Below, in pieces: positions 45,958-50,110 of a stretch of 64,000 bases of DNA (position 1 is the first letter of the stretch; the number at the start of each line of letters is the position of its first letter). Below the pieces are notes generated by a model, which did not search any database, was not told the origin of the DNA, and was given only the letters and a program-made list of their open reading frames with translations. Source of the stretch: Dictyostelium discoideum. Lineage: Eukaryota. The stretch is taken from the NCBI GenBank assembly GCA_000004695.1, contig CM000155.2:480001-544000 (forward strand), written 5' to 3'. A program made the translations under genes and the position numbers.

Positions 45958-46340
45958 AAAAATTTTATTCTTGATATATTATTTTTATTAAATGTTTTGT
46001 CACCAAAGACAGAATAAAAAAAAAGTAATATATGAATGGAGAAAAGAATTTGAAACAATAATTGATTTTGAAACTTTCATAGTTTTGATTTAATTTAATT
46101 TCTAAAAAAATAAAATGATCAAAAGAATTGGATATAAAATTCAGAATTATTAATTTTTTTTTTTTTTTTTTTTTATATATTTATAACGATGGGTCATTAT
46201 TTGATTGGTTATTATTTTACATTTTGTATTTTTCTGAAAAAGTAATATACTTTAGTATTTATTGTTAAATTTGATATTTCTTCGAGTCCTGAAGTTGGAA
46301 TAATAATAATATAAATTGATTCAAGTGTTGTATTTTGATC
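45958..46340. repeat. segmental duplicate of 49658..50050: intergenic sequence plus a family-gene 3'-end fragment carrying a ~30-bp insertion
   Basis: Near-identical strings: aaaattttattcttga...attaaatgttttgtcaccaaagacagaataaaaaa...gaaactttcatagttttgatttaatttaatttctaaaaaaataaaatgatcaaaagaattgga.... The second half (46195..46340) repeats the gene 3' end found again at 46366..46500. Confidence 0.8.
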
Positions 46341-46359
46341 AAGCATTAATATAATTGAT

Positions 46360-47919
46360 TTAATATTTTTTGTTTTTTATTTTACATTTTGTATTTTTTG
46401 TTAATTTTGATATTTCTTCGAGTCCTGAAATTGGAATAGTAATATAAATTGATTCAAGTGTTGTATTTTGATCGAGCAATGATACAATAAAATATTTGCC
46501 TCCAATATTACAAAAAGAAAAATTAAGTGTTAAAGTTTTAATTGTTTTATTATTTGCAAGTGAATTCATTAAATCATTTAAAAAGTTTTCATTGAATAAA
46601 CTATTTTCATCCCATCCACATCCACCACCAATATTATGAGAAATTGATAAATCTATAATTGTTGAATTTGTTGATAATAATTTTAAACATTGATTCCATA
46701 GAGACATTGAATATGGCGGTATTTCTTGACGTCTAAATCTACCACAATATGCTAGATCATCTTCATTAATGCCATAATCAATATAATCTTCAATATAATC
46801 ACTATCAAAATAATAATTTTGGGAATATTTTTTTTTAAAATCAATAAATTTAAAATTATCCATTTTATTAAAATCTAATTCTATTTTATCACCACTATAT
46901 ACACTATTATCATCTCTATTACCATCGCAATCACTATTATTATTATTATTATTATTATTATTATTATTATTATTATTATTATTATTATTATTATTATTAT
47001 TTTTAATTTGATTATCATAGATTGAAGATATAAAATGAAATTGAAGATCGAATTTGAGTGTATGTAAATTTGGTGATTGTAAAAATCTATAAAGTGCATA
47101 TAATGGTATGTAGTCACAAATGATTTCTACACTTTCATAGTTTTGATTTAATTTTGAAATTGAGTGATATTGTGGAATATGTGATGCTCCTATACTTGTG
47201 TTACTAAAGGGTATTATTTTTAAATATTTTGGATTTAATTCTTTAATCATTTCATAGAGGTATCCATAGGCATTTGTATCTTCATCATCATATTCAACTT
47301 CAAATTTATTTGTTTTAAATTTGAATTCTTTTTCAATATTTTCTAAATTGGTTGACTCTTCAGAGCTATACAATCCTAATTTGAAATTAATTATTAAATC
47401 TTTATTATTTAATTTATTTAAATATGTTAAATCCCTTATTGAATTTGTGAATGAACATTCATAGTCTTCTAAACTTTCTACACTAATAGTTTCTAATGAT
47501 TTTAAACTATTCATATAATTAATTGATTTATTATTTATTTCAAAATAATCAATTATTATTGTTTTAATAAAATCATTATGAACTAATTTAAATTTGTTAT
47601 TATTATTATTATTATTATTATTATTATTATTATTATTATTATTATTATTATTATTATTATTATTATTATTATTATTATTATTATTATTATTATTATAAAA
47701 ATGTGGAATAAAATGATTGAAAAGTTTTTGAGAATATTTAAACCAATTCCAATTGACCAATGAATAGTTTTTAATATTATATTTTATTATATTATCAATT
47801 TGAAATTCTTCATATAATATTTGTTTTTGAATTATTAAAGGTAATACTATTATTTTATTATTATCATTATTTTCTGATAGATTTGTTTTGAGTTTTTTAT
47901 TTGTTGTTTCGTCCTCCAT
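46360..47919 (-). CDS. F-box-like / RNI-type leucine-rich-repeat family protein (519 aa), intact copy
   Basis: Single ORF. The N-terminus MEDETTNKKLKTNLSENNDNNKIIVLPLIIQKQILYEEF...VNWNWFKYSQKLFNHFIPHFY fits an F-box pattern (LP..I...IL...W). Two (AAT)n poly-Asn tracts. The C-terminal half, ...IPPYSMSLWNQCLKLLSTNSTIIDLSISHNIGGGCGWDENSLFNENFLNDLMNSLANNKTIKTLTLNFS...LLDQNTTLESIYI...LTKNTKCKIKNKKY, has RNI-like LxxLxxNxTIxxLxL repeats. Confidence 0.65.
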   Translation of the reverse strand: MEDETTNKKLKTNLSENNDNNKIIVLPLIIQKQILYEEFQIDNIIKYNIKNYSLVNWNWFKYSQKLFNHFIPHFYNNNNNNNNNNNNNNNNNNNNNNNNNNNNNNNNNKFKLVHNDFIKTIIIDYFEINNKSINYMNSLKSLETISVESLEDYECSFTNSIRDLTYLNKLNNKDLIINFKLGLYSSEESTNLENIEKEFKFKTNKFEVEYDDEDTNAYGYLYEMIKELNPKYLKIIPFSNTSIGASHIPQYHSISKLNQNYESVEIICDYIPLYALYRFLQSPNLHTLKFDLQFHFISSIYDNQIKNNNNNNNNNNNNNNNNNNNNNNSDCDGNRDDNSVYSGDKIELDFNKMDNFKFIDFKKKYSQNYYFDSDYIEDYIDYGINEDDLAYCGRFRRQEIPPYSMSLWNQCLKLLSTNSTIIDLSISHNIGGGCGWDENSLFNENFLNDLMNSLANNKTIKTLTLNFSFCNIGGKYFIVSLLDQNTTLESIYITIPISGLEEISKLTKNTKCKIKNKKY

Positions 47920-48419
47920 TTTTTTTTTTATAAAAAAAAAAAAAAAAAAAAAAAAATTTTCTTTTTAGAAAAAAAAAAAAAAACGATTGGGATATTTGAG
48001 TTGGGTTTGATAGGTGGTATTAGAAATAAGGGTAAATTTCAGCATTAAAGTGGTGAAAAGTAATTTTGTGCGGCGCTGTGGGTTTTTTTTTTTTACTTTA
48101 ATTTTTTTATTTTAGATTTTAGAAAAAAAAAAAAAAAAATAAAAAAAAAAATTTAAAAAAAAAAAAAAAATAAAATTCCCATGCTTTTTAACCTCTATTT
48201 TTTTATTTTTTTAGGAAAGCTGCTAGTTTTTTTTTTTTTTAAGGGTGATTTCTCACAACTCTAATAGAATAATAATTATAAAAAATTGAAAGAGTTTTAA
48301 AATAAAAAAAAAACCATAATATCTTAAAAAAAAAAAAAAAAATAATCTGTTTTATTTATTTAATTTTTAATTATTGTTTTTTTTTTTTGTATTTGTAAAT
48401 TTTAATTTTTTTTATTAAA

Positions 48420-49465
48420 ATGGATAATAATTATAATAAATATAGTTCAGGACAATCAAAAATAATTTCAGACTTTGATAAGATTCAAGATATATTTGAA
48501 ATTGTTTTAAAAAATCATGTCAATAACCAAAGTACCCAGGATAATAATAATATAAGAATTTTAGATATTGGTTGTTCACATGGTAAAAATTCAATAATTG
48601 TCTTAAAACCATTAATTGAACAATTAGAAATAAATGGAAGCCAAATGAAAAAGTAATTGAAATATTTCATTCAGATCTACCAGTAAATGATTTTTCAAAA
48701 TTATTTAATGAAGTTTATCATTTAAATTCATACTCAAATAAAATCAATAATATTTTTACATATGGTATTGGTAATGGATTTGAAAATCAAATAGTACCAG
48801 ATAATTCAATTGATTTTATATTTTCATTTTCAACTTTACATTGGTTACCATTTTTAAATGAATATAAATCATTTGAAGGTTGATTACAAAAACCATTTTC
48901 AGATCGTTTACCAGGTTTTGAAAATTATTATAAAGAAAGATTATTAAATGTATTGCATCATCGTTATAATGAATTAAAAGTTGGTGGTATTTTTTCATTT
49001 AATCTTTTCATTCAAGAAGATCAAGGTAGTGAAAATGAAGAAAAAAGTAAATCAATGAAAAATTGTACGAAAAAAATTAAAGAAATTCTTAGAGAAATGA
49101 GTTATGAATCAATTTTATCAAGAGAAGAAGTTGAAAATATGATTGTTCCAGCCATAATTTTTACTAGAAATGAATATCAATATGCAATTGATAAATCAAC
49201 TAATAATACAGGTCTAAAATTAATTTATGAAAGTAGAATAACAAGCAATTGGTATTATTGTTATCAAGATGATGAATCTTATATTAGCTCAATCATTGCA
49301 TTTATTGGTAATTTCATTAAAAACGCAATTAATGGAGATAAGAATAGAGTTGATTCAATATTCAATGATTTTGAACAACGTCTACATTTAAAATATAAAT
49401 CAAATCCAAAAGATTTCCAATTTCATGTTAGTAGTTTATATTTATCATTTTTAAAAGAAAATTGA
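48420..49465 (+). pseudogene. SABATH-type (carboxyl/jasmonate methyltransferase-like, Methyltransf_7) SAM-dependent methyltransferase, disrupted by one frameshift and one in-frame TGA
   Basis: ORF 48420..48656 (…IRILDIGCSHGKNSIIVLKPLIEQLEINGSQMKK*, SAM motif I) continues only in another frame (VIEIFHSDLPVNDFSKLFNEVYHLNSYS...FSFSTLHWLPFLNEYKSFEG). A TGA falls at about 48880. The rest is ORF 48953..49465. Conserved SABATH features are present (LDIGCS.G.NS, DLP.NDF, S.HWL). Neither break has a credible intron; the candidates are about 24 nt. Confidence 0.5.
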
Positions 49466-49657
49466 ATAAATTTTATATGTTGGTAAATAAAATTAAATGT
49501 TTAAATTGAATACTTACTAAAATTTATTTATTATTTTTTAAAAGAAATACAAATTACAACTCTAAATTTTCTATGTTATTTATTTTATTTTTCAAAATTT
49601 TAGTCTATCTTTTTTTAATATAAATGGCCGGTTGTTAAAAAAAAAAAAATAAAAAAA

Positions 49658-50110
49658 AAAATTTTATTCTTGACATTTTATTTTTATTAAATGTTTTGTC
49701 ACCAAAGACAGAATAAAAAAAGTAATATTTGAATGGAAAAAAGAAATTTGAAACAATAATTGATTTTGAAACTTTCATAGTTTTGATTTAATTTAATTTC
49801 TAAAAAAATAAAATGATCAAAAGAATTGGAAATAGAGATAAAATTCAGAATTATTATTATTATTTTTTTTTTCATATATTTATAACGATTGGTCATTATT
49901 AGATTGGTTATTATTTTACATTTTGTATTTTTCGAAAAAGTATTATACTTTTGTTTGTATTGTTAAATTTGATATTTCTTCGAGTCCTGAAATTGGAATT
50001 ATAATATAAATTGATTCAAGTGTTGTATTTTGATAGAGCATTGATACAATTGTTAATTTCATCATCATCATCACGAATAGTAAAATATTTGCCTCCAATA
50101 TTACAAATTG
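49658..50110. repeat. segmental duplicate of 45958..46340 extended by a longer decayed family 3'-end fragment
   Basis: See 45958..46340. It continues with ...gaaattggaattataatataaattgattcaagtgttgtattttgatagagcattgatacaattg... (family C-terminus, minus strand, with stops). Confidence 0.8.

Follow-up and report, generated by a model that had tools for sequence, protein, structure and literature searches.

Tandem gene arrays that evolve by birth and death, such as those of the olfactory receptor, major histocompatibility complex (MHC), and F-box genes, consist of paralogues in the same orientation that are duplicated in a lineage-specific manner, are reduced by large deletions to 5', internal, and 3' fragments, and differ in copy number among isolates. 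In Dictyostelium, the tgrB1/tgrC1 allorecognition locus is structurally hyperdynamic, and AX4 carries 26 tgr pseudogenes (PMC12745789). Here we describe two related blocks of DNA, copies A and B, within a gene array on a 64,000-nucleotide stretch of Dictyostelium discoideum DNA (referred to below as the window). The array shares with other birth-and-death arrays all of the features just listed (its lineage-specific duplicates are 98.6%, 93.5%, and 95% identical) as well as relaxed constraint, with a ratio of nonsynonymous to synonymous substitution rates (dN/dS) of around 0.75. It differs from them in nothing essential, except that its family is uncharacterized and that its AT-rich homopolymer flanks may favor illegitimate junctions. 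As at tgrB1/tgrC1, which was described from the same set of genomes, local duplication, recombination, and gene gain and loss have yielded many pseudogenes; the family and the chromosomal region are different ones, however, the family here lacks detectable domains, and there is no sign of a mutational hotspot, of balancing selection, or of a recognition function. Copies A and B are ordinary debris of birth-and-death evolution rather than a new kind of element and, as we argue below, they are probably the 3' ends and flanks of two paralogues.

Copy A and copy B are each about 430 bp long and lie 3.7 kb apart. In a gapped self-BLAST of the window, positions 45938-46364 and 49637-50057 aligned over 434 columns, 20 of them with gaps, at 89.9% identity (E=4e-165). 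The Smith-Waterman local score of the pair was 310; in 300 dinucleotide-preserving shuffles the score averaged 14 and did not exceed 25. Identity between the two copies is 90.5% over all columns and 94.9% over ungapped columns. The duplication is therefore real, far above chance, and not an effect of low complexity. An earlier note on this DNA had placed it at 45958-46340 and 49658-50050, which is the right location for what is a slightly larger block. That note had also proposed self-alignment as a check, with identity below 80% or the lack of a shared insertion counting against a duplication and pointing to mere AT-rich low complexity; the identity of 89.9%, the score of 310 against at most 25, and the insertion that both copies share (see below) all count in its favor. 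Because the match is colinear and above chance, and because derived indels are shared and the match extends into the non-coding flank, A and B constitute a pair of paralogous duplicons.

The two copies are built alike, and both are on the minus strand, as are the other family sequences of the window unless noted otherwise. Read in gene sense, copy A consists of a gene-end module (46364 to 46212) that contains the insertion, a 3' tail of approximately 70 bp, and approximately 200 bp of flank that terminates in homopolymer DNA at 45938; the same parts make up copy B, from 50057 to 49637. The tail and flank of copy A (45938..46211) and those of copy B (49637..49910), together approximately 290 bp of shared non-coding DNA, are 95.5% identical at aligned bases. 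This flank includes a 112-bp segment that is found in A and B only and that holds a 34-45-nt relic of the mid-gene "NQNYES" region of the family (about 46058-46097). Unlike copy A, copy B extends 5'-ward into gene sequence up to position 50140. This extension matches 46488-46547 of gene C, an intact family member that lies immediately upstream of copy A, at 55 of 60 bases (92%), whereas other paralogues match it at only 68%. Moreover, type-specific signatures (CAGGACTCGAAG and a 3-bp indel) are shared by A, B, and the end of gene C, and TGTAATATTGGAGGCAAATATTTTA is common to B and gene C. A and B differ by 4.5% at aligned bases of the flank, by 8% in the gene piece, and by approximately 7% in the module, such that identity is uniform, at 92-95.5%, over the upstream motif described below, the gene piece, the module, and the flank.

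Gene C (46360..47919) is an intact open reading frame (ORF) of 519 aa. Its own coding 3' module, which we refer to as M1 (about 46366-46494), is free of the insertion. Directly downstream lies fragA (46212..46364), the module of copy A, which we refer to as M2: a tandem duplicate of the final ~130 bp of gene C. It is non-coding, begins at the stop codon of that gene, and is out of frame owing to the insertion. The spacing from M1 to M2 is 136 bp and their identity is 88.6%, in agreement with the earlier description of gene 46360-47919 as being followed directly by a second version of its last ~130 bp. At the M1/M2 junction (about 46360-46366), where gene C has its stop codon, the 3' tail of one copy is joined to the start of the next, i.e. 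to a sequence with which it has no homology. Because of this, the tandem of gene ends is unlikely to have come from classical unequal crossing-over, and the repeated unequal crossing-over that had been put forward as its origin does not fit; as judged from the junction, the sequence points to a small tandem duplication through slippage or illegitimate recombination. In its tail-to-module-start junction without extended homology, and in having a distal copy that is non-coding and carries indels, the arrangement resembles the small duplications of gene 3' ends that arise by microhomology or slippage. From about 205 bp originally, the unit has shrunk to 136 bp. The arrangement differs from such duplications in its age, which prevents a confident reading of the exact breakpoints and of any microhomology.

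The insertion amounts to a net 29 nt in copy A (46234..46261; CTGAAAAAGTAATATACTTTAGTATTTA on the plus strand), where it shifts the family reading frame, and to a net 28 nt in copy B (about 49933-49959), where it holds a stop codon. An alignment of the nine family 3' ends of the window places it between AATTTAACAA and AAAATACAAAATGTAAAATAA. We scored it in 11 modules, namely these nine (A and B included) and two from another assembly, and found it in A and B only; it is missing from the seven other 3' ends of the window and from the two in the other assembly, which bears out the claim that an insertion of approximately 30 bp is shared by A and B and absent from functional 3' ends. No second copy of the insertion is present in the window. 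Its first ~20 nt resemble the adjacent AAAATACAAAATGTAAAATA and 13 nt of it recur in the flank, although neither likeness is significant in AT-rich DNA. We also considered whether the insertion might be a spliceosomal intron. Dictyostelium introns are typically about 100-150 nt long; the insertion is 28-29 nt long, the sole GT...AG within it spans 17 nt, and the AG is lost in copy B, and we reject this idea.

What lies behind copy B is more than a gene end. FragB (49911..50140) represents the last ~200 bp of a dead paralogue, from approximately family codon 460 to the end, and is cut off at 50140. When compared to intact homologues it is disrupted by the stop codon inside the insertion, by a frameshifting deletion, and by the absence of codons 1 to ~460. 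On the other side of the truncation, the promoter-side region of the locus has been retained (50141..50317). A motif at 50279-50317 matches window 47985-48016 (GATTGGGATATTTGAGTTGGGTTTGATAGGTG), which lies 66 bp ahead of the gene C start codon, at 30 of 32 positions, with a score of 42 compared to at most 25 in shuffles; the motif is present at loci A and B only. (This motif was found with a GC-weighted local alignment; plain local alignment returned poly-A matches only.) Furthermore, 50141-50280 matches a segment of the other assembly that lies ~215-345 bp upstream of a gene of the same type, C2 (16697-16835 of locus L002; see below), at 85% of ungapped columns. Thus, locus B keeps the upstream region, the gene end, and the flank, and is the deletion remnant of a complete paralogue that has lost about 1.6 kb, comprising the proximal promoter and codons 1 to ~460. 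The truncation at 50140/50141 joins upstream intergenic DNA directly to codon ~460, and there is no homology at the junction.

A second remnant of this kind lies nearby. The 153-bp piece at 50574..50726 corresponds to family codons ~122-166 and matches positions 14795-14946 of L002, within gene C1 of the other assembly, at 94.1%, whereas its best match to any gene of the window is 89.5%. The piece is the remnant of a deleted counterpart of C1 and shows that deletion has produced fragments in this array besides locus B.

For comparison we used loci from the ten long-read Dictyostelium genomes of PMC12745789: L002 and L004 from GCA_054859355.1, another D. discoideum isolate (locus tags ACTFIW), and L005 from an assembly of D. 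cf. discoideum, a cryptic sister species (ACTFIY). L002 and L004 are syntenic with the window; a flanking gene matches window positions 41800-43550 at 89.5%, and a 349-aa gene matches AX4 gene DDB_G0291642, present downstream of locus A, at 95% (DNA). The order of genes in L002 is D-like, C1, C2, and the 349-aa gene. C1 and C2 are 93.5% identical to each other and only ~90% identical to gene C (note that the gene model of C1 contains introns or frame breaks, for which reason C1 was left out of the dN/dS values given below). At the end of C2 there follow M1, a 70-bp tail, an internally deleted second module that we call M2', and then the same flank as at loci A and B. M2' shares two derived sites with fragA, ATTATAT and AACCAATC, and the sequence just 5' of the M1/M2 junction is alike in both lineages (AAAAAACAAACAATAAT in one and AAAAAACAAAAAATATT in the other, a match at 14 of 17 positions). 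L002 does not have the 29-nt insertion, but the internal deletion of M2' spans the insertion site. It also lacks the 112-bp segment of the flank. The flank of A matches that of L002 at 89.5% of aligned bases, with many indels, or at ~70% when gaps are counted; within it, one stretch of 50 nt (TTCTGTCTTTGGTGACAAAACATTTAATAAAAATAATATATCAAGAATAA in gene sense) is identical at 48-49 of 50 positions among A, B, and L002 (window 45964-46013 and 49663-49712; L002 18936-18985). This stretch was found at these three loci only and has no match in Rfam.

Orthologous genes of the window and of ACTFIW differ by a synonymous divergence (dS) of 0.09-0.12. Because A and B are less diverged from each other than the window is from ACTFIW, the sequences argue that the A/B duplication is younger than the split of the two lineages, and because the syntenic array has the tandem of gene ends as well, that the M1/M2 tandem is older than this split and predates that of A and B. 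The same arrangement in the other assembly is at odds with the notion that the tandem is recent. Variation in array copy number, which the earlier note had suggested looking for in long-read assemblies of other isolates, is present: the window contains 3-4 long genes plus fragments, ACTFIW contains at least 12 genes, and L005 contains one full family gene plus fragments, with the same flanking genes as the window and beside the same polyketide synthase. Although this variation in copy number among isolates is what non-allelic homologous recombination (NAHR) would produce, neither the M1/M2 junction nor 50140/50141 lies in paralogous homology. The outer boundaries of A and B, being in homopolymer DNA, speak neither for nor against it. 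The description of A and B as a segmental duplication in a dynamic array holds, then, on both counts; the further idea that this duplication seeds new fragments does not, since fragB and 50574-50726 are remnants left by deletion from whole paralogues.

Taken together, these observations lead us to favor, as the probable if by no means certain account, a history in which A and B are the 3' ends and flanks of two paralogues in an array under birth-and-death evolution. The order of its steps is one that we infer. Before the window and ACTFIW lineages separated, a unit of approximately 205 bp (the last ~115 bp of the gene plus ~70-90 bp of 3' tail) would have been tandemly duplicated at a non-homologous junction, giving rise to the coding M1 followed by the non-coding relic M2. 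In the lineage of the window, M2 would then have gained the 29-nt insertion, and the flank the 112-bp mosaic segment with its scrap of mid-gene sequence. Next, a unit of at least 2.1 kb comprising the upstream motif, the gene, M1, M2, the tail, and the flank would have been duplicated to give loci B and A, with locus B keeping the ancestral upstream neighborhood and locus A the ancestral downstream neighbor DDB_G0291642. Locus B would subsequently have decayed: M1 and M2 may have collapsed to one hybrid module, and a deletion of about 1.6 kb and a small frameshifting deletion would have occurred. Locus A retained gene C with its intact 519 aa. In keeping with a collapse of this kind, the single module of B has an M1-like diagnostic site at its 5' end, where it is contiguous with gene sequence, and is M2-like at its 3' end, where it has the insertion and AACC.

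Several points weigh against this history. The substitutions in the ~100-bp modules form a star tree, with no sites that pair any two of A, B, and M1. The reading of the B module as an M1/M2 hybrid draws on two diagnostic sites and contiguity, and the orthology of fragA and M2' on position, two shared sites, and a junction match of 14/17 in AT-rich DNA; a global aligner paired fragA with the M1 of L002 instead. Finally, a methyltransferase pseudogene that L002 lacks lies in the 1.6 kb separating the two loci, which implies that the duplication was not cleanly head-to-tail or was modified later.

We therefore weighed this history against other explanations. Tandem arrays commonly undergo gene conversion, and A and B might be an old duplication, predating the lineage split and corresponding, for instance, to the pair of tandem C-type genes in ACTFIW, that was homogenized by a recent ectopic conversion of ~430 bp covering the module, the insertion, the tail, and the flank. 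The star tree is compatible with this, and the fact that the two C-type genes of the other assembly are 93.5% identical to each other and ~90% identical to gene C may mean concerted evolution. However, the likeness of A and B extends past the block, to the gene piece (92%) and the upstream motif (30/32), and the position of C1 is already held by the remnant at 50574-50726 (94%), such that B is an extra copy with respect to the other assembly. We consider conversion unlikely. The order of events might also be reversed, with a single insertion-bearing module being duplicated to give A and B and the last ~136 bp then being duplicated at A, where a precise deletion, or conversion from another paralogue, then removed the insertion from the proximal copy and restored the C-terminus of the family. 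That B has one module, and that this module bears the insertion, would be accounted for in a simple manner; moreover, since an ORF at A with the insertion would still stop nearby, such a gene is conceivable. Yet the scenario requires the exact removal of 29 nt; the type-specific signature of M1 reaches the insertion site, which speaks against conversion from a paralogue that is not of the C type; and M1 is no nearer to fragA (88.6-89.8%) than to B (89-92%). In addition, the second module of the other assembly is in the same position and shares derived sites, so the tandem predates the split of A and B. A late origin of the tandem is thus improbable.

It is very doubtful that the block, or its 50-nt core, is a functional element (a 3' untranslated region or terminator, a regulatory site, or a donor that diversifies the C-termini encoded by the array). 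Such a role might explain why the core at 45964-46013 is conserved at 49/50 across lineages in a surrounding flank that is ~70% identical including gaps, and the family evolves fast (dN/dS 0.74-0.81). But the core occurs at these loci only and has no Rfam match, copy B stands behind a dead gene, no conversion tracts from A or B were seen in functional genes, and the insertion and flank are absent from every intact 3' end. There would be an even slimmer chance that the relics together with the core are kept for a function, whether as a terminator or regulatory module that is shared or as cassettes that donate sequence, by ectopic conversion, to the variable C-termini of the family; used as cassettes, they would parallel the pseudogene-templated diversification that operates at antigen or allorecognition loci. 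Most likely, the relics have no function. An artefact of assembly, in which the second copy or the tandem of gene ends would result from misassembled Nanopore and Illumina reads in AT-rich repeats, deserves mention as the window is part of a de novo long-read contig, from a genome of 22% GC, in a homopolymer-rich region. We regard it as extremely improbable: the copies diverge by 5-10% and by several indels, they stand in distinct unique contexts, the tandem of gene ends recurs with this architecture in another isolate that was assembled independently, and flanking proteins match the Sanger-based AX4 reference at 100% identity.

Two further origins were rejected. FragA and fragB have in common with a processed pseudogene that they are 3'-terminal gene fragments beside A/T homopolymer runs. 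They differ from one in that A and B carry flank that does not look transcribed, that B carries promoter DNA as well, and that the runs are not a poly(A) tail. An origin by retrocopying is ruled out by the copying of the flank and, in B, of upstream promoter DNA; the ~290 bp of flank are also found downstream of an intact gene in L002, the block ends in T-runs in gene sense rather than in poly(A), and no target-site duplications were seen at A or B. The block occurs twice in the 64 kb and once at the syntenic position of the other assembly. With just two copies in the window and no reported flanking inverted repeats, and on a comparison with these sequences rather than with a genome-wide library of such elements, it does not qualify as a repeat borne by a transposable element.

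The main use of these findings is a practical one, in that they explain conflicting gene models at the locus and mark fragA, fragB, and the 153-bp piece as pseudogene debris. The deposited annotation contains a single 1042-aa model (43681-47921, minus strand) that fuses gene C, fragA and its flank, the truncated homologue of DDB_G0291642, and a fragment at 43767-44102, whereas the AX4 annotation of the same region has a 348-aa ORF only. The relics probably gave rise to this fusion as an artefact of annotation. The locus also provides a small, datable example of how a Dictyostelium array turns over through duplication, small tandems with AT-rich junctions, and kilobase deletions, although it opens no new biological question.

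Relatives of gene C are hypothetical proteins. Homologues of 506-535 aa are found in Dictyostelium at 58-68% identity; over D. discoideum, D. cf. discoideum, D. citrinum, and D. dimigraforme identity to gene C is 53-68%, and in Polysphondylium violaceum it is 31-35%. The family is specific to dictyostelids, fast-evolving, and uncharacterized. Pfam returned nothing at E<=0.1 for seven members (gene C, gene D, and five homologues), and a family profile had no match among PDB sequences. (An F-box label attached in UniRef to some Polysphondylium homologues was not reproduced, as a Pfam scan of those homologues was negative.) An Rfam scan of 43.5-51 kb gave a sub-threshold chance match only. With a dN/dS of 0.74 between gene C and the syntenic gene of L002, and of 0.74-0.81 overall between window and ACTFIW orthologues, the family is weakly constrained.

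We mapped the array by tblastn with gene C, and all hits were on the minus strand. In order of position, the search returned a family fragment (31318-32138), a piece of a 3' end (43767-44102), a gene truncated at its 5' end (44418-45810), fragA (46272-46355), gene C itself, fragB (49970-50077), the internal fragment (50592-50726), gene D at 50842-52518, a scrap at 53076-53144, and the disrupted gene E at 53897-55519. The window has a G+C content of 22%, with (AAT)n in coding tracts and poly-A/T in intergenic DNA. Contig JBTAPE010000005.1 encodes gene D exactly; it belongs to assembly GCA_054883475.1, which is labelled Dictyostelium discoideum. The proteins of ORFs 44418-45464 and 53329-53874 are 100% identical to AX4 DDB_G0291642 and DDB_G0291538, respectively.

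The truncated gene at 44418-45810, which corresponds to AX4 DDB_G0291642, has lost its start codon and ~33 codons through a deletion of about 150 bp, when compared to its ACTFIW orthologue, which begins with MEDETTNKKLK at L002 19261; in the annotation, the 348-aa protein begins with a methionine from within the gene. At 31247-31366 (minus strand) and 32213-32324 (plus strand), two family 3' modules are present in opposite orientation, about 1 kb apart, beside the frameshifted fragment 31318-32138. These look like a second, more decayed cluster of remnants 12 kb from the main array.

Between loci A and B, on the plus strand, lies a reading frame for an S-adenosylmethionine (SAM)-dependent carboxyl methyltransferase of the PF03492 type (48421..49466). 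A frameshift close to 48630 and a TGA in frame at about 48881 make it a probable pseudogene. In the deposited annotation it is given as an intron-containing gene for a 309-aa protein with a PF03492 domain, and it is absent from the syntenic interval of L002. Inside the array, the plus-strand ORF 53329-53874 encodes a 181-aa hexapeptide-repeat sugar O-acetyltransferase. Its nearest relatives are bacterial (Paenibacillus, Bacteroidota; ~65-71%), with no other eukaryote among the top 120 matches, and the gene looks like a horizontal acquisition from bacteria. Among the top BLAST hits of the window against L005, none in the syntenic L005 interval matched this acetyltransferase.

In the ACTFIW array, a piggyBac-like transposase gene (PF13843) and a retroelement integrase gene (PF00665) are situated among the family genes (L002 1124-3940; L004 7460-9239), and the family genes at 4400 and 12069 of L002 are 98.6% identical, a very recent duplication. 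In L005, two tandem polyketide synthase genes (2534 and 2552 aa; positions 1-9358) adjoin the family gene, and window positions 56369-56999 match both of them at 95-97%. Finally, a motif made up of two parts (AACCTGGTGGATATTTT ... GAAAAGATATTTTGG in gene sense) is found repeatedly in both assemblies at ~150-200 bp upstream of family genes (window 45868-45905, 50425-50511, and 48316-48327; L002 16370-16420 and 19095-19140), and is a candidate promoter element of the family.

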